Shown here: positions 14,539-63,693 of the stretch, one piece after another | How the letters are laid out: every line of letters begins with the position of its first letter | How positions within the stretch are numbered: the first letter of the stretch is position 1 | Origin: Patescibacteria group bacterium | Lineage (GTDB): Bacteria; Patescibacteriota; Minisyncoccia; Phycocordibacterales; GCA-2747955 | Assembly: GCA_048538215.1 (NCBI GenBank) | Contig: JBLYPV010000001.1 | Span: 254,196-318,195, forward strand | Direction of reading: 5' to 3' | Length of the DNA stretch: 64,000 bases | Position numbers and translations under genes: made by a program | Notes under the pieces: model-generated | Databases searched by the model: none | What the model was told of the DNA's origin: nothing | Seen by the model: the letters and a program-made list of their open reading frames with translations, nothing else

Positions 14539-16800
14539 ATGCAGGCTGATACCGACTTGAAACAAGTATTTCGCATAAGTTCTACTCAAGAAAAATCTCT
14601 CAAACGACTAGGCATAGAAAGCGTGAGAGATTTGCTCTATTATTTTCCCAAGCGATATGGTGACGCACAATCCTTTGCCCCGATTGCAGACCTTCGAGCA
14701 GGAGATACGCCAATAATTTATGCAGAGGTAAAATCCATTCGTGCTCGCAAAGCTTGGCACAACAAACAAAATCTTACAGAAGCTACGCTTGAAGATACAC
14801 GAGGAGATACGATCAAAGCAATTTGGTTTGCCCAGCCCTATATTAGTAAGAAGCTCGATATAGGTAGCCAGGCACGATTTATGGGAGTCATCAATGAGCG
14901 CAATGGCGCACTCGCCATAATCAATCCTGAATTTGAACGACTCAAAGAGATTCCCATTGAACAGAGTGGTAATCTCTTTGCTGATGACGCCAAGGCACTC
15001 GAGCAAACCCTCTACCCGGTATACAAAGAAACAAAAGGTATCACAAGCAAATGGATATATCACCATATCCAATCATTATTTGCCAAGGGTATTTTAGATT
15101 CGATACAGGATCCAATTCCTCAAGATATTCTAGAAAGATACCGTCTACCTTCACTTGCTCATGCTCTGCAGTATATTCACGGACCACGAAAGCAGGGTGA
15201 TGCTGATGTTGCCCGCAAGCGTTTTGCCTTCGAGGAAATGTTTTTTGCCCAACTTGTACGAATGGAAGAGCGAGCAAAATATGAAGCATCTGGAGCTTTT
15301 GCTATCAGTGAGACGAGTAGCGAAAAGATAGACTCATTCACCAATTCCCTTCCCTTTGTACTCACTTCTGGGCAAAAGAAAGCCACTGAGGCTATCTTGA
15401 GCGATATGCGCTCAGATACACCGATGTCTCGCCTCCTGGAGGGTGATGTGGGAAGTGGTAAAACAATCATTGCTGCCATAGCTTCTTTTGCAGCTATAAG
15501 CTCTCGCCCTAAAGATCAATCTGTGGGCTATCTACAAGTAGCCTATATGGCACCTACTGAGATTTTAGCTAAGCAAATTTTTGAAGAATTCTGCTCACTC
15601 TTTGCTGATTTTCCTGTCCAGATTGGGCTTATTACTGGTAATGAATGCAAAAAATATCCAAGTAAAACATCAGCACAAGCAACCACTGTGAGTAAATCAC
15701 AGCTTCTCAAATGGGTGCTCAATGGTGAGATACAGATCCTCATAGGCACCCACGCTCTTATCAGCAAGCAAGTATATTTTGAAAATTTAGGGCTAGTGAT
15801 TGTCGATGAGCAACACCGCTTTGGTAAAAAACAGCGAGCAGCACTTCGCAATAAGGGAGCTCTCAAATCAGCAGACAAGAAGACAGCCGATAAAAAAACA
15901 ATGCTCGGCAAGATGCAAAACTCAAAGATACAAAAAAAAGGAGTGGTGAATAATGATGATATTCTTCCTCACCTTCTATCAATGTCGGCTACCCCCATTC
16001 CTCGTACCCTCGCCCTCACTATATATGGAGATTTAGATCTCACTATTCTCGATGAGCTCCCACCGGGACGGCAAAAGATCCAGACCTCCCTTGTGCGACC
16101 AGGAAAGCGTGAAGATGCCTATGAGACAATCCGTACCGAGCTTCAAGCGGGGCGTCAGGCCTATGTCATTTGTCCTAGAATTGACGAGGCCGACCCTAGT
16201 CGCATTGGTGCTATCCACGCAGTAGCTGCAGAAAGTGAAGCCAAGCGACTACAGGCAGATGTTTTCCCAGAATATCGAGTAGGGGTGGTGCATGGTAAAT
16301 TACATAAAAATAAAAAGGAGGAAGTGATGAATGCTTTTAGGGATCACGAATTGGATATTTTGGTGGCCACCTCAGTAATCGAAGTGGGAGTAAATGTGCC
16401 CAATGCTACTTCTATTATTATCGAAGGAGCGGAGCGATTTGGTTTGGCCCAGCTACACCAGCTTCGTGGCCGAGTCATGCGATCCTCCCACAAGCCCTAC
16501 TGCTATATTTTTTCAGATAGCCAAAATGAAGATAGTCTCAAACGATTGCACGCTCTAACCACTAATTCAAATGGCTTTGCTTTGGCTGAAGCCGATTTAG
16601 AATCTCGTGGCTCAGGAGAATTACTAGGAGTGAAGCAATCAGGAATGAGCGACTTGGCAATGGAATCACTCAAAAATCTCAAGCTTGTGGAGGCCGCTCG
16701 CAAAGAGGCAATGGATATCATACAGAATGCTAGCCTCGAATCCCATCAAGCAATGCACCAACGATTTAGCGCAATCCAAGCCCAGGTGTATATGGAATAA
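14539..16800 (+). CDS. recG: ATP-dependent DNA helicase RecG
   Basis: Wedge/OB N-terminus, helicase motif I LEGDVGSGKT, DEQH box, helicase C-terminal domain. Confidence 0.9.
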   Translation: MQADTDLKQVFRISSTQEKSLKRLGIESVRDLLYYFPKRYGDAQSFAPIADLRAGDTPIIYAEVKSIRARKAWHNKQNLTEATLEDTRGDTIKAIWFAQPYISKKLDIGSQARFMGVINERNGALAIINPEFERLKEIPIEQSGNLFADDAKALEQTLYPVYKETKGITSKWIYHHIQSLFAKGILDSIQDPIPQDILERYRLPSLAHALQYIHGPRKQGDADVARKRFAFEEMFFAQLVRMEERAKYEASGAFAISETSSEKIDSFTNSLPFVLTSGQKKATEAILSDMRSDTPMSRLLEGDVGSGKTIIAAIASFAAISSRPKDQSVGYLQVAYMAPTEILAKQIFEEFCSLFADFPVQIGLITGNECKKYPSKTSAQATTVSKSQLLKWVLNGEIQILIGTHALISKQVYFENLGLVIVDEQHRFGKKQRAALRNKGALKSADKKTADKKTMLGKMQNSKIQKKGVVNNDDILPHLLSMSATPIPRTLALTIYGDLDLTILDELPPGRQKIQTSLVRPGKREDAYETIRTELQAGRQAYVICPRIDEADPSRIGAIHAVAAESEAKRLQADVFPEYRVGVVHGKLHKNKKEEVMNAFRDHELDILVATSVIEVGVNVPNATSIIIEGAERFGLAQLHQLRGRVMRSSHKPYCYIFSDSQNEDSLKRLHALTTNSNGFALAEADLESRGSGELLGVKQSGMSDLAMESLKNLKLVEAARKEAMDIIQNASLESHQAMHQRFSAIQAQVYME

Positions 16801-16813
16801 GTCACCATTTTGC

Positions 16814-17089
16814 TTAGCTAGTACGACTTTGTTTTTTGCGAAGCTCTTTGTATATTTTTTCACGAGTCTTTACTAATACTATTTTGATTCTTGTATTTTT
16901 TTCAAAGAAAATTACTCTATAGTCATCTCATCGTAATCTACAGAGGGGTTCGAATCCCTTGAGAAGTCGGGTATCATTTACCTCTCCCTTTCGTAATAAT
17001 TCTAATGTATGGGCAACTTGCTTTTGCTGTTTCTTAGGAAGAGATTGTATATATTCAAAAGATTGTTTTGAGAAATCTAATTTAATCAT
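16814..17089 (-). pseudogene. RelE/ParE-family toxin with a single in-frame TGA (codon 54)
   Basis: Translation MIKLDFSKQSFEYIQSLPKKQQKQVAHTLELLRKGEVNDTRLLKGFEPLCRLR*DDYRVIFFEKNTRIKIVLVKTREKIYKEL matches the RelE/ParE pattern (kkLkG...yRlRvGdyRviy...HRkdiY); TGA sits where the consensus has V/G. Confidence 0.7.
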
Positions 17090-17101: not shown

Positions 17102-17335
17102 TTAGAAATTCTCCGCTTTTTTTTGTACCAATAAACTCATTCTCTTCAAAAATAGGCTGCGCCCGACGGGCGAGATAAAATCTTCAAATGCCTCCATATC
17201 AGCGGTGGCAATCATATAAGCTGTTGGACGACCTCGTTTTGTTATAGCTACAGGAGATCAATATGCATCAATAAGCATCTCGCCAAATTTATTTTTTGCT
17301 TCGCTTGCTATATAAGTAGTAAACAATTTATTCAT
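17102..17335 (-). pseudogene. Phd/YefM-family antitoxin with a single in-frame TGA (codon 26)
   Basis: MNKLFTTYIASEAKNKFGEMLIDAY*SPVAITKRGRPTAYMIATADMEAFEDF...; 12-nt gap to the toxin start. Confidence 0.7.
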
Positions 17336-17471
17336 AGTCTATATGAATAGCCGAATTAGCTAATTCAGTCAATATCACTACATCAAATGTAGCTAGCTTA
17401 TCACTAAAAAATACGGCTAGCATAGCCGTATTCATAAGATAATTTATCCATTGCTGATATGAGAAAGAGAG

Positions 17472-17543
17472 TCCAACAGGCAGGGATCGAACCTGCGACC
17501 ACGAAGGTATAAGCTTCGCGCTCTACCACTGAGCTACTGTTGG
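17472..17543 (-). tRNA. tRNA with anticodon UAU (putative tRNA-Ile decoding AUA)
   Basis: Perfect cloverleaf CCAACAG/TA/GCTC-AGTGGTA-GAGC/G/CGAAG-CTTATAC-CTTCG/TGGTC/GCAGG-TTCGATC-CCTGC/CTGTTGG/A; anticodon loop CTTATAC puts TAT at positions 34-36. Confidence 0.7.
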
Positions 17544-17659
17544 ACTCTCGCTCCCATGTTGCTCGCTTACAGATAACAAGCTTCCGACTGACTCCTGCTC
17601 TCTTTGAGATATGTGCTCCGCTTATCACTTACGAGCCCCCCGATTATATCAGAAATTTG

Positions 17660-18853
17660 CTATCTGACACGGCAGGAGCTTGTAAATTCTTTGATTAATC
17701 TATCCGTTGCGTCTTGCGTTTGGTAGCTAATAATCATATACCCTACATTTGTACGATAGAGCATAAGCACTCGTTCGATAGGAGAATTCCCATAATGGCT
17801 TGCCAATACTGTCGCCTGCCAATGATTTCCATACTCATCAGTATACGCTTTCTGATCTTGTATGACCCAGCTACGGAGGTAATCATCTCCTAAATCGGTA
17901 GGAGGTGCTCCTCGATTAAATTGCTTTATAATTTTTAGTATCGCTCTTTGATAGCTTGGCTCTACTTCACCCTCAATTAAAACATCCAGCCTATCTTGAC
18001 CTTCTTGATATTTCCACACCCAGAGATCACGCCCTTCATACTCATATGTAAGGATTGTATCCATATCTATAGGCGAAGGAAGAAAAAGCGCCCGCTTGTG
18101 ATTATAAAGCATCTTATTGGCATAAATGTGCTCGGCTATCTCTGTGCCCACATACCGCCAGTGCCATGGCTCGTATTGATATTGGGTAATGTCTTGTGCT
18201 CCATCAGGATATGAAAGCACAAAGCCATACTTGTATGCATTTTCTGCAAGCCATTCGTAGCCAGAAGCAGTGGCGCTTGGATAGCTAGAAATATCTATCG
18301 CCGTACCCAGCTGATGCTCACTCAAGCCAGGCAAGGCTGCACGCTCTCCCTGCTCATCCACTCCCGCATTATCCGCAAAACGCTCATACATTGCTTGTTG
18401 CTCTACTGATGATCGATAAGCTGAATTGACTCGGAGGTAGTGCCCTGCCTCGCGCCCTGATCGTATCAAGGCAATCAATGGCTCTTTCACCACCGCCCGT
18501 ACTTGTAGCACCCCTTGCTTGGGATGTGTATATTGATAGCCAAGTGAAACTAAATCACTCGGCACATAATTAGCCCGCAGTGGCGGACGATTATTATTTA
18601 TCTTTTGCAATAATGCATCATCACTAAATTGCTCAACATCACAAGAAAAATGAGCATAATTTTGTGCTCGCTCGAGAGCGTTCCAGCCCTCTAATCTTTG
18701 CTCAAATTGAGCACGTAGATAGGGAGTATAGCCATACTCCATATACAAGACCCAGAATGAAGCTACCGCTACTGCTCCCACAAGAGCTAACCAAAAATAC
18801 CATCCAAAAAATGCTTCCTTGCTATTTGTGTACTGCTTGTAATTATTGTCCAT
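17660..18853 (-). CDS. D-alanyl-D-alanine carboxypeptidase (VanY / peptidase M15 family) with N-terminal TM helix
   Basis: SAYRSSVEQQ...GLSEHQLGTAIDI zinc-binding motifs of VanY-type LAS peptidases. Confidence 0.75.
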   Translation of the reverse strand: MDNNYKQYTNSKEAFFGWYFWLALVGAVAVASFWVLYMEYGYTPYLRAQFEQRLEGWNALERAQNYAHFSCDVEQFSDDALLQKINNNRPPLRANYVPSDLVSLGYQYTHPKQGVLQVRAVVKEPLIALIRSGREAGHYLRVNSAYRSSVEQQAMYERFADNAGVDEQGERAALPGLSEHQLGTAIDISSYPSATASGYEWLAENAYKYGFVLSYPDGAQDITQYQYEPWHWRYVGTEIAEHIYANKMLYNHKRALFLPSPIDMDTILTYEYEGRDLWVWKYQEGQDRLDVLIEGEVEPSYQRAILKIIKQFNRGAPPTDLGDDYLRSWVIQDQKAYTDEYGNHWQATVLASHYGNSPIERVLMLYRTNVGYMIISYQTQDATDRLIKEFTSSCRVR

Positions 18854-28244: not shown

Positions 28245-28258
28245 ATTATTTGCAAAGA

Positions 28259-28287
28259 AGAGCCGGCGCGTAAGCGCCGGCTTTTTC
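28259..28287 (+). terminator. rho-independent terminator (AGCCGGCGC-GTAA-GCGCCGGCT + TTTTT)
   Basis: GC hairpin plus T run after the kinase gene. Confidence 0.8.
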
Positions 28288-28305
28288 AAAATATACTCCC
28301 AAAAT

Positions 28306-28677
28306 TCACCCTATAGCTAAGCCATAAAATGGAGGATCATACCCTATGTGATATCTATCAAATAGGGTATTAGCAAATTCTATGCGTTGTAATTTGCTTC
28401 CCTCGCTGGATTTGCTGTGCCAAGCTCTTTCATCATAGAGAAACACTTCTTTACACACGGTATTCCAGAAATCTTCAAAAGTTTGTCGTGAGCCAAAATC
28501 TTTGACTCGAACGAGCTCCTGCCCAAACCAGAATGGGATGCTCCACTGCGCACGATTGTCGGGAGTATTCGTGAATTGCAAGATCATTCTTCCTCTCCTT
28601 ATTTTGATTTGCAAGCAAAAGCCCGAGCTTGCTGCTCGGGCTTGCTTTGGCGCTGTTATGAAATTTAGACAAAGCAA
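28306..28677 (-). CDS. hypothetical protein (likely 93 aa from internal Met MILQFTN...)
   Basis: ORF; no family assignment. Confidence 0.4.
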   Translation of the reverse strand: MLCLNFITAPKQARAASSGFCLQIKIRRGRMILQFTNTPDNRAQWSIPFWFGQELVRVKDFGSRQTFEDFWNTVCKEVFLYDERAWHSKSSEGSKLQRIEFANTLFDRYHIGYDPPFYGLAIG

Positions 28678-28819
28678 ACACGACCAGCCAAATGGTGGCG
28701 AATAATACTAATAATAATGTTTGTTCTCTGTCGCATAGAAAAAATATAACATAAGATAAAACAAAGAAAAAGTCCCAGGCACATCAGCGCGCCCGGGACC
28801 AAAATCGAGATAGAGGTCG

Positions 28820-29227
28820 TCACATGCAGGCACCCCCAGGGGTGCTTATTATGGGTTCTCCCGTCCGCCGAACCTCGCTCGGAATCCGATGCTTTTCGAG
28901 CTTATGCCTAATAATCACATCGTGCAGGTTTTTAAACACCTGATTGGCACTTTGCGCCCCATGAAAGGCTCGCTCGGCGATCTGGACCGCTTCGTATGTT
29001 GGTCCAAATTCCTCATAAGAGTGCCGCAACACTTCTTTCAAGATCGCGACCTCATCGTATTTCCATGCCCACCGCGTATAACCCTCGCAGGCACCAAATG
29101 CGCCACGATACTTACGGGTTATACGGTGCACCATACGCATCGTTGGATTGGTGAATCCAATTGCCCGAAGGGCGTCTTTCACCTGTTCCCTGGTTTCCAT
29201 CATGCCTCTTCCTCCTCTAATGATCAT
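28820..29227 (-). CDS. hypothetical protein, GC-rich (foreign) gene
   Basis: About 58% GC ORF in AT-rich genome; no recognisable family. Confidence 0.5.
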   Translation of the reverse strand: MIIRGGRGMMETREQVKDALRAIGFTNPTMRMVHRITRKYRGAFGACEGYTRWAWKYDEVAILKEVLRHSYEEFGPTYEAVQIAERAFHGAQSANQVFKNLHDVIIRHKLEKHRIPSEVRRTGEPIISTPGGACM

Positions 29228-29305
29228 CTACTTGCCTGCCAGCTGATCCTGGTAAGCAAGATAAATGTCCCAACGCTACTTTCCGATAAGTAGCGTTGGG
29301 AAATT

Positions 29306-29650
29306 TCAAACACGGACTGCTCCAATACCTTGGGCTTCCCCATCATTTCCCGGCGGATTGAGCAAGCGGTGCAACCTATCCATGACTTCAAGGCTCGGCT
29401 TTGACCCTGGGAAAAAATATTTCCGATTGGTCAGGCTACCCTCGAAGCCAATTTTGGAAAGAATTCGCCCTTCAAGCTCCTTTTGGCCTATACCACTTGC
29501 CCATACTCTTGTGTTCTCCACAAAATATATGTTTTGGTCATCAAGTACACAAGACCATGTCCAACGAGCTTTGCCCTGAGGCTTAGGTGGGAAACATCGC
29601 ACTCGATATTCGTCTATAAAATATGTCTTATCTTTCATTGTACCCTCCAT
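29306..29650 (-). CDS. hypothetical protein (114 aa) in GC-rich island
   Basis: ORF; no recognisable family. Confidence 0.45.
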   Translation of the reverse strand: MEGTMKDKTYFIDEYRVRCFPPKPQGKARWTWSCVLDDQNIYFVENTRVWASGIGQKELEGRILSKIGFEGSLTNRKYFFPGSKPSLEVMDRLHRLLNPPGNDGEAQGIGAVRV

Positions 29651-29882
29651 ATTTTAAAATTACAGTGTGTTTATCTACCTATACCTATTGGCTACAAAAA
29701 ACAAAGAGTCCGCTCTTTCGAGTGGACTCTTTGCTGGGTATCTTGGGTATATATGAGAAGCTACACAGTAAACAATCCACTCGACTTGGTAAGTAGGAGT
29801 ACCACAAGAATATTGAGTAGATTGTTGTTTGTATGCCTATGCATATACTGAAAATAACATAAAATTATATCCCCCGCAATCA

Positions 29883-29903
29883 CTTAGGGACCGGGTCCCT
29901 AAG
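29883..29903. repeat. REP palindrome copy 2 (CTTAGGGACCGGGTCCCTAAG), 3 nt downstream of RAYT stop
   Basis: Perfect 10-1-10 palindrome identical to the copy at 143. Confidence 0.85.
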
Positions 29904-45048: not shown

Positions 45049-45192
45049 TGCTCGGCAATTGTATCATACCTTCAGACTACATTGAGACTAGATCGGGATG
45101 TGCTTCTTACTAAAATATTGACTTTTGGTAATTTTTTGGTTAATTTATTAGCCAAGTGAATATTGTATACACTCAAGTTTCGGGAGGAAACA

Positions 45193-45369
45193 ATGAATGT
45201 AAGTATTGTAAAGACTCTGCCTCGGGACACCATTGATCCGAGGCAAAAAGAACAAGACAATCCAACCTGTCCGTATCATCGAGAGGTACCGATGATTCAA
45301 GGCTTTGACGGAGGAGGCGGTAAGCCTACTCTCTGTCCTGCCTGCGAACGGGAAAAAATGAATTTCTGA
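45193..45369 (+). CDS. small zinc-ribbon protein (58 aa)
   Basis: CPYH...CPAC cysteine pairs; GGGAGGAAA RBS. Confidence 0.4.
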   Translation: MNVSIVKTLPRDTIDPRQKEQDNPTCPYHREVPMIQGFDGGGGKPTLCPACEREKMNF

Positions 45370-45375
45370 ATTCTC

Positions 45376-45410
45376 GAAGCCGGCGCGCTTGCGCGCCGGC
45401 TTTTGCTTTG
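45376..45410 (+). terminator. terminator (AAGCCGGCGCGC-TTGC-GCGCGCCGGCTT + TTT)
   Basis: GC hairpin after the small ORF. Confidence 0.75.
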
Positions 45411-45459
45411 ACTACTACGCTCTCTAGTGCTATCATAAAAATCTGAAAGCTCCTTCTAT

Positions 45460-45762
45460 ATGGGGAGCTATTTTCTATTCTTGGAAAGAAAGGATCTCCT
45501 TATGTTTGATTGCTACGGTGCTCAGTCTACCCATCAAGTGACCAACACCCTGCTTTACTTTCCACCCTTGGTGGGGCAAACGCGCCCCGTCCTAGCATCT
45601 TCGGAATCACGAGCACGAGAATTATATCTCCTGCGTCGCTTCAAGCAGAAGCACCTGAATCTCAATTGTGCAGGTTGTGGGAAATCGGTATTTTTTGCAC
45701 GAAGGATCTGGACTGAACACGAGAATGCTCTCTACTGCGCTAGCTGTGTCAGCCCGGAATGA
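45460..45762 (+). CDS. hypothetical CxxC...CxxC zinc-ribbon protein (start may be internal Met MFDCYG)
   Basis: CAGCG...CASC motif. Confidence 0.4.
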   Translation: MGSYFLFLERKDLLMFDCYGAQSTHQVTNTLLYFPPLVGQTRPVLASSESRARELYLLRRFKQKHLNLNCAGCGKSVFFARRIWTEHENALYCASCVSPE

Positions 45763-45801
45763 ACAAAGCCATATGGGTGTAGCGAAAGCTACACCCATTA
45801 A

Positions 45802-58889: not shown

Positions 58890-58928
58890 ATAAAAATCTC
58901 AAGAGCAATATCCCTCTTGAGGTTTCTA

Positions 58929-59163
58929 GTGTGTTTATTGTACCAAGCTCGAACCTATTTCCAATCCAAACACTAGCAACGCGCGGAGCACACAGTGGCT
59001 TTGTATTTCACCGTACGCGTTGGAGTTTATCTCAATGCTACTCAGCGCCTCGGGGCGCTCGGTTCCTCGCGCAGCAATTCCCAAAATTTTCTTGCCTTAA
59101 AGAAAAAGCGAAAGGGGGTGTGGGGGAAGTCGCCAAAAAGTTGAAAGAAAATTTTGGGGTTGC
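58929..59163. repeat. IR-A: left arm of about 235-bp perfect inverted repeat (partner 61153..61389)
   Basis: Reverse complement of 61153..61389 is identical over about 235 bp; GC-rich relative to surroundings. Confidence 0.9.
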
Positions 59164-59431
59164 TTTTGCCTTCCAGTCTTCCAAAAATTCTTCACAAAGC
59201 CCTTTTAAGAAGTAGGGGCTTTGTTCATCACTTTCTCCAGACTGGTGGCACCCGAGGCGCTCTCGTATACAAAGCTCGTGGTAGTTTTATACACGCTCAC
59301 ACCCCACCACCTCGCATTGGCCGCTCACTTCGTTCGCGTGGCCTGCTCTGTGGTGGGGTGCTCGCGCAGGGGGCTTCGTTTGAGTTTGTGGTATTTAAAG
59401 GTTCACGCTTCGCGCAAACCATTGAAAAATA

Positions 59432-60739
59432 TTATTTCTCCAAATCCTCTAAGTCTTGATCTAAGATTCCAAGCTGGGTCAGTAGAGCAATATGTTCGCT
59501 ATTGTTAGGGTCGTATTTCCCAATCGTAAAGGTTTCGACAACCTCACTGTTTTCTGATGCTAAAGTCCAGATTGCTCGATTACCAAAATATGACATATCT
59601 TTGGGATAAACAGCGCCCGGAGTTTTGCATGTTGTGCCTCTGAAAATACGCACACAATCATTGTAGGCAGTTGTAGCAGCTGCTTCTGGCGTGACGTCTT
59701 TTTTGGGTGATGCAAGTAGCCGATAGTCAGACATAATTTCATGAGTACGTCTGAAATCTAGTTTTTCACCAGTTATACCTTTTGCCAATGCTATGGAAAA
59801 AAATCTTGGGACTCCAGCAAATTCTTTCGCCCCAGTGACCTGTTGCTCATTGTATGTGGCTATTCCTTCTTCGGCTTTTAGATATCTATCTAAACCGAGT
59901 CCAAGCAACTGCAAACGAGAACGCTCACCATTACTTCGTCTTGCAACATGAGTTTTAATCTCGTGTTCAATCAATCCTTTCAACTTCTTTTTACTAATAT
60001 TTCTAGCAAGCAGTTTGTCTTCAGCTGGAACACGAACGACTTTATGTTCTTGACTGACGCTAAAATTCGAGATGCCTGATTCAGTATCGACAACAACTTT
60101 CCAGTCGGTTGCGTCAATTTCCTGTAACGCTTCTTCAAACGCAGCCACTGCTTCATCTACTGATTCTAGCTTTCCTGAAATATCCTCGCCCTCGGGCAAA
60201 ATTGATTTGTCAGCACCTTGACCAGCTGGTAGTGATACTTCGCTGAAAACTGCATGCAACTTTTGAGCCGCAGCTGCTTTATTAGCGTCTTCAGACGCTA
60301 AGTTAGCTTGAACCAATTCTTTTACATGTTCAAGTACATACCCAATGTCAGCAATTTCTGGCGTGCCATAGATAAAATCTGCATAGCGAGAAAACATTTT
60401 ATCGTTGCCCTCTCGTGCCGCTTTTAGCATCCGTAATGTAGCAAGAGATTCATTGATTTTTGTGCGGTATATTTTTTTTACGGCATCGTTTTTCTCTAGC
60501 TCTAAAACATCTTCTTTCAGAGCGAGTAAGGCGTGTTCTCTCTCTTCAAGATTGAAAGATTCTAATTCGGGGTAATCAAGAGTTGGGTTGTCAACTTCAC
60601 CATTCAAAAATTTCCCTTTTTCCGCTTCGCGCACCTCTTTTTTACCTGTAAGTTTTTCGTAATCTTCAAAAGCAACTTCTTCAAAACGCTTATACCAGCG
60701 ACTATCAAGCTTTTCTTCATGTGACTGTATTTTTTCCAC
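59432..60739 (-). CDS. DUF1704-family (QEGLA-motif) HExxH metallopeptidase-like protein
   Basis: HEIKTH zinc motif and EEGIATYNEQ (QEGLA-like) region. Confidence 0.6.
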   Translation of the reverse strand: MEKIQSHEEKLDSRWYKRFEEVAFEDYEKLTGKKEVREAEKGKFLNGEVDNPTLDYPELESFNLEEREHALLALKEDVLELEKNDAVKKIYRTKINESLATLRMLKAAREGNDKMFSRYADFIYGTPEIADIGYVLEHVKELVQANLASEDANKAAAAQKLHAVFSEVSLPAGQGADKSILPEGEDISGKLESVDEAVAAFEEALQEIDATDWKVVVDTESGISNFSVSQEHKVVRVPAEDKLLARNISKKKLKGLIEHEIKTHVARRSNGERSRLQLLGLGLDRYLKAEEGIATYNEQQVTGAKEFAGVPRFFSIALAKGITGEKLDFRRTHEIMSDYRLLASPKKDVTPEAAATTAYNDCVRIFRGTTCKTPGAVYPKDMSYFGNRAIWTLASENSEVVETFTIGKYDPNNSEHIALLTQLGILDQDLEDLEK

Positions 60740-60845: not shown

Positions 60846-61139
60846 ATGTCATTTGAAAATATCCCGTCTCAAGAAAAACCAGTTAAATTGTCGCTGTGTG
60901 CAAAAAATATCACTACTGGTGAAGTAACGAAAGAGCCCTTAAAAGAATATAAAAATTTAGATGTTGCAAGGCAAGATTTAAAATTTGAAAGACTTAGAGG
61001 CCTAGAGGAAGGATCAGAAGAGTATGATTTAGAATCTGATGACCCAACAGAGCAAGCTTTTGCAGAACGAGAACAGGAACAATACAGACTTAATCATGAA
61101 TTTTATTTTGAAGATGAAAACGGAAATCGTGTCGAATAA
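60846..61139 (+). CDS. hypothetical acidic protein (97 aa), divergent from the DUF1704 gene
   Basis: Intact ORF. Confidence 0.45.
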   Translation: MSFENIPSQEKPVKLSLCAKNITTGEVTKEPLKEYKNLDVARQDLKFERLRGLEEGSEEYDLESDDPTEQAFAEREQEQYRLNHEFYFEDENGNRVE

Positions 61140-61152
61140 CTGATTGAATTAG

Positions 61153-61389
61153 CAACCCCAAAATTTTCTTTCAACTTTTTGGCGACTTCCCCCACACCCC
61201 CTTTCGCTTTTTCTTTAAGGCAAGAAAATTTTGGGAATTGCTGCGCGAGGAACCGAGCGCCCCGAGGCGCTGAGTAGCATTGAGATAAACTCCAACGCGT
61301 ACGGTGAAATACAAAGCCACTGTGTGCTCCGCGCGTTGCTAGTGTTTGGATTGGAAATAGGTTCGAGCTTGGTACAATAAACACACCAG
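61153..61389. repeat. IR-A': right arm of the 235-bp inverted repeat
   Basis: See IR-A. Confidence 0.9.
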
Positions 61390-61521
61390 AATAGAACTTT
61401 CGGGTTCTAAACCAACTTTGGCATGGGCGGCGCGTAGCGCCGCCCATGCCGTTGGCGGCTCTGTGGAGCCACCAACCGAGGACGAGACAACCACGCGACG
61501 GCCGCTGAGGCGGAGGTGCGA
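61384..61521. repeat. IR-B: left arm of 138-bp perfect inverted repeat (partner 63087..63224); contains a 14-bp perfect GC hairpin
   Basis: Reverse complement identical to 63087..63224; directly abuts IR-A'. Confidence 0.9.
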
Positions 61522-61697: not shown

Positions 61698-63272
61698 ATG
61701 AAAGAAAAATTCTTTTTGTACGCTCGCAAGTCCACTGATGTCGAGGATAAGCAGGTGATGTCAATTGATGCTCAGTTGGTGGAATTGCGTACATTTGCCC
61801 GTGAGCAAGGGCTAGAGATTGTTGAAGAGTTTGTCGAAAAACAGTCAGCCAAAAAGCTAGGCCGTCCTATCTTTGGGCAAATGCTCTCGCGCATCGAGCA
61901 AGGTGAAGCGTCCGGTATAGTCTCCTGGGCGCCAGACCGTTTAGCTCGTAACTCCGTTGACGGTGGGCAGATTATCCACCTCCTCGACACGTGTGTTCTT
62001 GCGAGTCTCAAGTTCCCGACCTTTTGGTGTGACAACACTTCACAAGGAAAGTTTATGTTGAGCATGGCGTTCGGGCAAAGCAAATACTATGTTGATTCTC
62101 TTTCCGAGAATACGAAACGTGGGCTCAGGCAAAAAGTCCGCTTGGGGCATTGTCCAAGCAAAGCTCCAATCGGATATATCAATGACGTTCGGACTAAAAC
62201 CATCGTTCCAGACAAGAAGCGTGCTCCGATTATTAAAAGAGTGTTTGAGTTATACGCAGTTGGAGACATGCGGCTAGAAGATGTGGCGGACTTTTTCGCC
62301 CAGCACCACGTTACCACCCGTACCGGCAAGAGAATCTCCAAGACTAGAGCGTCTTTTATCCTCTCCAATCCTTTTTATGTTGGATTGTTTAAGTACGGCG
62401 GCGAAGTATATGAAGGCAAGCATGAGCCAATCATCGCAAAGCCACTGTTTGATGAAGCGCAGGCGGTACTCAAAAAGAGAGGTCAGCCAGACCGCAAACC
62501 CAAGAATGAACCGCAACCATACTGCGGACTAATAACCTGCGCTTCCTGCGGGATGATGATAACGGCCGAGAACAAAACGAAGCGACAGAAGAATGGAAAT
62601 ACACACCACTACGTGTATTATCGCTGTACCAAGAAACACAAGAATATTCATTGCCAAGAGAAGTCGCTTCGTTCTGAAGTTCTCGACTCCCAGTTATCAT
62701 CCCTTATCAAAGCAGTGGCTTTGCCCACCGACTGGGCAACCAAACTCAATCAAATGGCTAAAGATGAACACGCACAGTCTAGCCAGTCGGTGTCACAGCT
62801 CGTGAAAGAGAGGCGGCAAGAAATACAAAACAATACTATTAAACTAGACCGCCTTTTAACTGGATATCTAGAGCAAGTTATAGACGAGTTAGATTATCGA
62901 AAAGAAAAAGCCAAGTTACTATCCGAAAAGAAGAGTCTGGAGTCTGAAATAGCTTCTCTTTCACACGCTGTGAATGATTGGCTCGCACCTTTCCAAGACT
63001 GGCTAAAAGACGCTCAGAACTTGGACGAAATCGCTTCTGATTGCAACCTTTTTACGAGAAAGGTTGCCGCCAAAGAAATCTTTGGCTCGCACCTCCGCCT
63101 CAGCGGCCGTCGCGTGGTTGTCTCGTCCTCGGTTGGTGGCTCCACAGAGCCGCCAACGGCATGGGCGGCGCTACGCGCCGCCCATGCCAAAGTTGGTTTA
63201 GAACCCGAAAGTTCTATTCTGGTGCCCAGGGCGGGAATCGAACCCGCACCGCCATTGGCGACAAGATTTTAA
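61698..63272 (+). mobile_element. large serine recombinase (resolvase catalytic domain, recombinase domain, zinc ribbon, coiled-coil); reading frame runs into IR-B' and tRNA-Leu
   Basis: YARKSTD catalytic-Ser region, CGLITCASCG...YYRCTKKHKNIHC zinc ribbon, C-terminal coiled-coil; last about 60 codons lie inside the inverted repeat. Confidence 0.85.
63087..63224. repeat. IR-B': right arm of 138-bp inverted repeat, ending at the 3' CCA end of tRNA-Leu
   Basis: See IR-B. Confidence 0.9.
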
Positions 63273-63305
63273 GTCTTGCGTGTCTACCAATTCCACCACC
63301 TGGGC
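63220..63305 (-). tRNA. tRNA-Leu (anticodon UAA) with genomically encoded CCA
   Basis: GCCCAGGTGGTGGAATTGGTAGACAC..CTTAAAA..long variable arm..GGTTCGATTCC..CCTGGGCACCA. Confidence 0.85.
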
Positions 63306-63620: not shown

Positions 63621-63693
63621 CCCCTTGTAGCTCAGTTGGTAGAGCAGCAGCCTCTTAAGCTGACGGTCCTAGGTTCGAATCCTAGCGGGGGGA
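63621..63693 (+). tRNA. tRNA-Lys (anticodon CUU)
   Basis: TAGCTCAGTTGGTAGAGC D-arm, anticodon loop CTCTTAA, GGTTCGAATCC T-arm; acceptor stem has two G-U pairs. Confidence 0.7.

Follow-up and report, generated by a model that had tools for sequence, protein, structure and literature searches.

The genetic code has a classic weak point in the decoding of AUA as isoleucine, because AUG must not be misread along with it. To our knowledge, nearly all bacteria solve the problem with an essential enzyme, TilS. A different solution has been characterized experimentally in Mycoplasma mobile, which has no tilS: its tRNA-Ile2(UAU), with an unmodified U34, is charged by an isoleucyl-tRNA synthetase (IleRS) adapted at Arg865, and AUG is rejected in a ribosome-dependent manner (Taniguchi et al., 2013, PMC3575796). 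Replacement of C by T at position 34 of a tRNA-Ile(CAU) gene has been proposed as its origin, and the same study noted 371 unique, unassigned environmental tDNA-Ile(TAT) sequences (PMC3575796). In Bacillus subtilis, a tilS deletion survives on a tRNA-Ile1 with a mutated UAU anticodon, which in its unmodified state sustains AUA decoding and binds AUG only weakly (Kohrer et al., 2013, PMC3919564). Genes with TAT anticodons have been recorded in 19 species in tRNADB-CE (PMC4013482). Bacterial tRNA-Ile(UAU) is already known as a kind, and the gene described here is a further example.

The gene lies in a 64-kb stretch of DNA (hereafter the window) that makes up about 10% of a 622.8-kb source contig. 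The window is a segment of a compact bacterial chromosome, that of a Patescibacteria group bacterium, with about 42% G+C; its genes, identified by sequence, include secA, recG, scpB, uvrA, those of the tyrosyl- and histidyl-tRNA synthetases, and secY, adk and map in a cluster of ribosomal protein genes. ARAGORN reports six tRNA genes over the 64 kb, among them a minus-strand tRNA-Ile with anticodon (tat) at 17471-17543. The Rfam tRNA family RF00005 matches the same gene over its full model (1-71, at 17543-17472) with 70.7 bits and E = 1.9e-13, against a gathering score of 29. The two programs agree that the UAU-anticodon tRNA gene put forward in the sequence-only reading is genuine. The CCAACAG/CTGTTGG acceptor, discriminator A and CTTATAC loop given there are exact in the sequence, the sense strand, which had been left unstated, being the minus strand. 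Standard pipelines would annotate the gene correctly, and for the window itself it is an ordinary annotation.

Features of the tRNA-Ile(UAU) locus, in window coordinates
Feature	Position	Strand	Evidence
tRNA-Ile(UAU) gene, 72 nt to A73	17472..17543	-	ARAGORN; Rfam RF00005 70.7 bits; orthologues at same syntenic place in L120-L127
Anticodon TAT (UAU), loop C32 U33 U34 A35 U36 A37 C38; ATA on plus strand	17509..17511	-	direct read, ARAGORN
Candidate promoter GTGTCA, 16 nt, TG-TATAAT; 10/12 matches, extended -10	17643..17670	-	consensus scan
M15 (VanY-like) metallopeptidase gene, directly upstream of tRNA, synteny anchor	17660..18853	-	PF02557
recG, convergent, other side of tRNA, second synteny anchor	14539..16800	+	ORF listing

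On the minus strand the tRNA reads CCAACAG UA GCUC AGUGGUA GAGC G CGAAG CUUAUAC CUUCG UGGUC GCAGG UUCGAUC CCUGC CUGUUGG A. Watson-Crick pairing holds for 21 of 21 stem pairs, the D and T loops have canonical sequences, as do positions U8, U33 and A37, and the isolated tRNA folds with -27.2 kcal/mol (z = -2.9 relative to shuffles). Positions 34-36 are TAT in the genome, within a 7-nt loop that has U33 and A37, as in the M. mobile-type gene; the CAT anticodon that marks the gene of a lysidine-type tRNA-Ile2(CAU) is not what is encoded here. Only C74 is encoded 3' of A73, so that CCA is absent from the gene and would be added post-transcriptionally. The acceptor stem opens with C1-G72, which is unusual among bacterial tRNAs. 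The tRNA-Lys(CUU) gene of the window at 63621-63693 (plus strand, CCCCUUG...) also begins with C1-G72. The promoter-like site in the table precedes the 5' end of the tRNA by about 100 nt and is located at the end of the M15 peptidase gene; since such sites are no more numerous in the region than in shuffles, it is regarded as a candidate only.

The codon that this tRNA would read is in regular use. Over the 49 window ORFs of at least 150 aa, AUA amounts to 18.7 per 1000 codons and 24% of isoleucine codons, and it is present in 48 of the 49. Codons of eight window proteins were aligned with orthologues from three relatives (L120, L121 and L123). The residues opposite window AUA sites are I in 35%, V in 24% and L in 22% of cases, and M is outside the seven commonest aligned residues, whereas ATG sites in the same eight-protein alignment face M at 52%. 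AUA is therefore heavily used and behaves as isoleucine, and a codon that is frequent, aliphatic and Ile-like needs a dedicated reader. The same alignment bears on the possibility that the tRNA accepts an amino acid other than isoleucine, for example methionine, as for AUA in many mitochondria, or that it is a decaying or horizontally acquired tRNA (from a phage or mobile element) with no role in the host. The unusual C1-G72 start and the adjoining toxin-antitoxin-like insertion speak for such a tRNA; AUA sites that face I, V and L, not M, in the orthologues speak against it.

Conservation of the locus bears on the same question. Homologues of the M15 peptidase with 39-57% identity were traced to eight contigs (L120-L127), and tRNA-Ile(UAU) follows the peptidase gene in 8/8. 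The order scpB, M15 peptidase, tRNA, recG, secA is kept wherever these contigs extend that far, with RecG orthologues, recognized by their Pfam domains, flanking the tRNA in L120, L121, L123 and L127. In four of the relatives (L120, L124, L125 and L126) the tRNA is identical to that of the window at 72/72 positions. The other four (L121, L122, L123 and L127) have mainly compensatory stem changes (A-U to C-G at 6-67, G-C to A-U at 7-66 and G-C to C-G at 49-65), together with small differences in the D and T loops. None of the eight relatives has any change in the anticodon arm CGAAG-CUUAUAC-CUUCG. A tRNA that stays fixed or changes in pairs while the neighboring proteins have diverged by half has the signature of a working tRNA, and comparison of these sequences indicates that the window tRNA-Ile(UAU) is under strong purifying selection. 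A syntenic gene that is identical or compensatorily changed in relatives with this degree of protein divergence is not what a decaying or newly acquired tRNA would be expected to look like.

The toxin-antitoxin module between the tRNA and recG is missing in L120, where the tRNA is present. The module thus looks like a decaying insertion, and its absence from L120 counts against a tRNA without a host role. The sequence-only reading had placed the tRNA directly upstream of this TGA-containing module; the link between the two proves to be positional only.

The isotype assignment draws on the anticodon, on A37 and A73, and on similarity to other tRNAs. The isoleucine identity elements A73, A35, U36, A37 and U12-A23 are present in the window tRNA. 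The E. coli isoleucine identity set reportedly also has A38, C29-G41 and C4-G69, as against C38 and A-U pairs at 29-41 and 4-69 in the window tRNA. A BLAST search of the window tRNA against E. coli genomes for the closest annotated isoacceptor returned no match at E <= 10. The core of the molecule, taken without the acceptor stem, is closer to the tRNA-Ile(GAU) of the CPR (candidate phyla radiation) locus L069 and to the UAU family described below than to the other isoacceptors sampled; it is equally close to this tRNA-Ile(GAU), the single CPR example compared, and to the UAU family average. The L069 tRNA-Ile(GAU) lies 18 nt from the UAU gene of the same genome. On these grounds the window tRNA is probably an isoleucine tRNA.

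More specifically, the tRNA resembles tRNA-Ile2. It shares with tRNA-Ile2(CAU) the D arm GUAGCUCAGUGGUAGAGC, a 5-nt variable loop of the form xGGUC, A37 and A73, and differs from it at the defining position, having T34 in the gene in place of the CAU anticodon. On the plus (antisense) strand, 17471-17543 matches the Rfam family RF04354, 'Plastid-ycf2 5UTR', with 36.8 bits, which falls short of the gathering score of 65.7; the five remaining tRNAs of the window do not have an RF04354 match. By sequence comparison, we take the RF04354 consensus to be the reverse complement of plastid trnI-CAU, the lysidine-type tRNA-Ile2, so that the antisense of the window tRNA weakly matches a model complementary to such a tRNA. 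RF04354 as curated overlaps the antisense of a tRNA gene.

To examine the distribution of this tRNA, the GTDB representative genome of each species was scanned with a pattern in which nothing was fixed except the D arm, CTTATA, GGTC and a portion of the T arm. The scan found at least 119 other tRNA(UAU) loci of the same build in species-representative genomes, and ARAGORN calls tRNA-Ile(tat) in 119/119 of the loci listed. Among the matches listed, 89 are labelled Patescibacteria or named CPR lineages (Saccharibacteria, Paceibacterota/Parcubacteria, Adler-, Woese-, Roizman-, Berkel-, Dojka-, Uhr- and Yanofskybacteria, and others), 11 are labelled 'bacterium', 3 carry other labels, and 16 belong to co-assembly bins from third parties under the labels Gammaproteobacteria or Pseudomonadales. 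In several of the last group the tRNA is the same, letter for letter, as in MAGs labelled Patescibacteria (e.g., L083 and L119 as in L017 and L073), which makes the labels of these bins look unreliable; the Gammaproteobacteria and Pseudomonadales labels of the 16 are probably wrong. The loci concerned are L002, L003, L011, L015, L026, L028, L034, L062, L071, L081, L083, L084, L089, L096, L108 and L119.

Features that the search pattern did not impose are also preserved in the family. The 14 stem pairs outside the pattern are paired in 96-102 of the 102 unique sequences among the matches listed, with 2-7 pair types each, and A73, likewise outside the pattern, is invariant in 102/102 of them. 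C1-G72 recurs in 14/102 of these unique sequences, which counts against reading the unusual start of the window tRNA as a sign of another acceptor or of decay. With the invariant A73, the conserved synteny and the aliphatic behavior of AUA sites, an acceptor of another amino acid or a tRNA without a host role is largely refuted, and we regard it as very improbable. A functional tRNA-Ile remains the preferred reading, and tRNA-Ile(UAU) is, judged from these sequences, common across the CPR superphylum, the window gene not being peculiar to its genome. The earlier statement that UAU tRNA-Ile is known only from a few lineages was an understatement, given at least 119 species-level genomes, almost all from Patescibacteria; in 2013 the count stood at nine tilS-less species in three clades (PMC3575796).

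Whether such a tRNA accompanies or replaces tilS was approached through the genes around ftsH. In many bacteria, tilS lies just upstream of ftsH. No ORF with a PP-loop (SGGxDS) and no tRNA(CAU) was found in the 64-kb window, and in the window lineage the tRNA(UAU) gene is not adjacent to ftsH, so that a local test of complementarity is not directly applicable to it. In some other members of the family the two are neighbors: ftsH is present in 9/119 of the UAU genome loci listed, with the tRNA immediately beside it in 7. The gene upstream of ftsH, where scanned in these genome loci, is rpsA (S1) or encodes a NUDIX protein, DivIC or RNase HII, and is never that of a PP-loop protein. A search for the SGGxDS motif in all 119 UAU-bearing loci listed (857 kb, about 8 kb per genome) found no TilS, a result that says little except for the loci that contain ftsH.

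A larger sample was obtained by fetching 80 metagenome ftsH loci with an alignment of CPR FtsH proteins, of which 46 were eligible. Among the ten loci that most resemble CPR (51-58% identity), eight have tRNA-Ile(UAU) 14-170 nt downstream of ftsH, and these eight have no SGGxDS ORF in the 4.3-10 kb upstream. In 25 eligible loci tilS lies directly upstream of ftsH and tRNA(UAU) is absent. The resulting two-by-two table over the 46 loci (rows 13, 25 and 8, 0) gives Fisher p = 7.8e-4, a value confounded by phylogeny, most of the tilS loci being from outside the CPR. Genome and metagenome samples together contain 17 ftsH loci with tRNA(UAU) (9 and 8, respectively), and none has a PP-loop/TilS ORF in the upstream sequence covered, which extends to as much as 10 kb. 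In many CPR genomes, tRNA-Ile(UAU) shares the strand of ftsH and stands 10-215 nt downstream of it; loci with an ftsH-linked UAU tRNA are L128-L134, L137, L007, L009, L021, L036, L087 and L111, often with rpsA (S1) upstream of ftsH and tRNA-Val(GAC) after the tRNA. The arrangement suggests that tRNA-Ile(UAU) may be co-transcribed with ftsH, at a locus where other bacteria keep tilS.

These data have to be weighed against the possibility that tilS and tRNA-Ile2(CAU) are located elsewhere in the source genome and that the UAU tRNA is a second, partly redundant reader of AUA, the 'transition state' of the Taniguchi model, exemplified by Lactobacillus casei and L. plantarum. These two species have both tilS and tRNA-Ile(UAU), as do Cyanothece PCC 7424 and Ferrimonas balearica (PMC3575796); all four share with the present case a TAT-anticodon tRNA gene in a bacterial chromosome, and the window covers only about 10% of its contig. 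Several CPR lineages have also kept tilS. In the cultivated Saccharibacterium Southlakia epibionticum, the gene order is tilS-ftsH-murJ, with tilS scored as essential in two of three calls (PMC10633639). A short TilS of another CPR-type locus, L139 (a 329-aa ORF with PF01171 only), has homologues labelled Patescibacteria group, candidate division Kazan and Parcubacteria group among the matches listed. Unlike the four species in which tilS was retained, however, no CPR locus sampled has both: tilS and tRNA(UAU) co-occur in 0 of the 119 UAU genome loci listed, 0 of the 8 UAU metagenome ftsH loci and 0 of the 28 tilS loci, and none of the 120 TilS homologues listed as matches is on a contig equal in length to a UAU-bearing contig. 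The one near match in length (72,437 against 72,438 bp) is a tilS-ftsH-murJ locus that has three tRNA(CAU) genes and no tRNA(UAU).

The tRNA genes beside tilS provide a further argument against redundancy. In L139 and L208, three tRNA(CAU) genes are followed by tilS and ftsH, and in L209 the order cmk-tilS-ftsH is followed by tRNA-Val(GAC) and a tRNA(CAU). One tRNA(CAU) in each of the three loci has the exact build of the UAU family in its D arm, variable loop, T arm type and A73; that of L208 reads GGGCCUG-UA-GCUCAGUGGUAGAGC-A-GCCCC-CUCAUAA-GGGGU-UGGUC-GCAGG-UUCGAUC-CCUGC-CGGGCCC-A. The other two tRNA(CAU) genes of L139 and L208 are of the initiator and elongator Met types. The tRNA-Val(GAC) gene that is the usual neighbor of the UAU gene follows ftsH in L209 too. 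A build shared with the CPR tRNA(CAU) beside tilS suggests substitution, not addition, and a redundant reader is in our view unlikely. Read most simply, these sequences make the CPR tRNA(UAU) a tRNA-Ile2 in which U34 has taken the place of C34, and CPR genomes would have either the CAU form with tilS or the UAU form without it. The pairing of a CPR tRNA(CAU) beside tilS with a CPR tRNA(UAU) lacking it parallels the path proposed for M. mobile.

Taken together, we consider it likely that the window gene is a functional tRNA-Ile whose genomically encoded UAU reads AUA, belonging to a CPR family of tRNA-Ile2 build that has U34 and dispenses with the lysidine step. Throughout this family a genomic T occupies position 34 in place of the C of tRNA-Ile2, so that TilS would be needed neither for isoleucine identity nor for AUA reading; the unedited UAU anticodon would itself pair with AUA, a codon used at about 19 per 1000 in the window. 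By analogy with the M. mobile and B. subtilis work, the IleRS of the source organism would be expected to accept U34, as an enzyme with Arg or Lys in the place of E. coli W905 or as an IleRS of type 2. Neither the window nor the other loci compared contain an IleRS gene; the only two long class I synthetase-like ORFs look LeuRS-like by motif positions. Misreading of AUG might be avoided as in M. mobile, where ribosome properties would act in concert with a U34 that is unmodified or carries a special modification, or alternatively through competition with tRNA-Met. The source genome probably has neither tilS nor tRNA-Ile2(CAU). The earlier proposal of an atypical AUA decoding strategy holds as far as the UAU decoder is concerned; its suggestion that tilS may be absent fits the UAU/tilS complementarity seen in related CPR, some lineages of which nevertheless keep the enzyme.

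The likeness to M. mobile is that a bacterial chromosome would supply a UAU anticodon that reads AUA as isoleucine without lysidine. The CPR case belongs to a different phylum, would have an independent origin, and involves a far larger family. It differs also from the B. subtilis suppressor, a laboratory mutation of tRNA-Ile1(GAU), in being natural, conserved and of tRNA-Ile2 build. A broader proposal is that much of the CPR gave up lysidine, tilS and tRNA-Ile2(CAU) having been replaced by a C34-to-U34 tRNA that is often directly downstream of ftsH; we judge the chances of this to be about even.

In sum, the source organism and at least 119 species-level genomes, mostly CPR, encode a UAU anticodon as an alternative solution to the AUA problem, and the ftsH-locus comparison suggests that this solution replaces tilS rather than being added to it. 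We found no link between lysidine or tilS and Patescibacteria or the candidate phyla radiation in the searchable literature. The CPR-wide spread and the ftsH-linked complementarity, both drawn from minimum counts and sampled loci, may be under-described. If replacement is confirmed on complete genomes, tilS could not be relied upon in the CPR, either as a universal marker or as a drug target. The environmental tDNA-Ile(TAT) sequences of 2013 might then have a source, and CPR IleRS enzymes and ribosomes would offer natural systems in which to study the avoidance of AUG by U34. Were lysidine loss to prove CPR-wide, a major bacterial branch would read AUA with a UAU anticodon, and as yet undescribed features would have to go with it, either lineage-wide adaptations of IleRS and the decoding center or a modification of U34.

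Several other observations were made in the window. Its 49 ORFs of at least 150 aa end with TAA (33) or TAG (16) and never with TGA, and a TGA-recoding genetic code was considered for the source genome. It is not supported: long genes have no in-frame TGA, and in L120, L121 and L123 about 9% of the genes called, that of the M15 peptidase orthologue among them, have TGA as the stop. The pattern looks like strong avoidance of TGA and not a recoded stop. In the toxin-antitoxin module beside the tRNA, a RelE/ParE-like toxin ORF at 16814-17089 (minus strand) is broken by an in-frame TGA at 16928-16930 and is preceded by a 37-aa ORF at 17102-17215 (minus strand); this TGA does not fall at a residue able to reveal reassignment to Gly or Trp.

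The segments 28246-29900 and 45050-45800 have no convincing ORF, with many short overlapping ORFs on both strands, several of which end in TGA, and no Rfam match within either segment even at E <= 0.05. Two perfect inverted repeats lie toward the end of the window. The first (58924-59164 and 61151-61391, 241-nt arms) flanks ORFs at 59432-60739 (minus strand) and 60846-61139 (plus strand). The second (61384-61521 and 63087-63224, 138-nt arms) flanks a serine-recombinase-like ORF at 61698-63272 (plus strand), the 3' end of which overlaps the tRNA-Leu(UAA) gene at 63220-63305 (minus strand). Both could be invertible segments, a mobile element at the tRNA cluster, or an assembly artefact.
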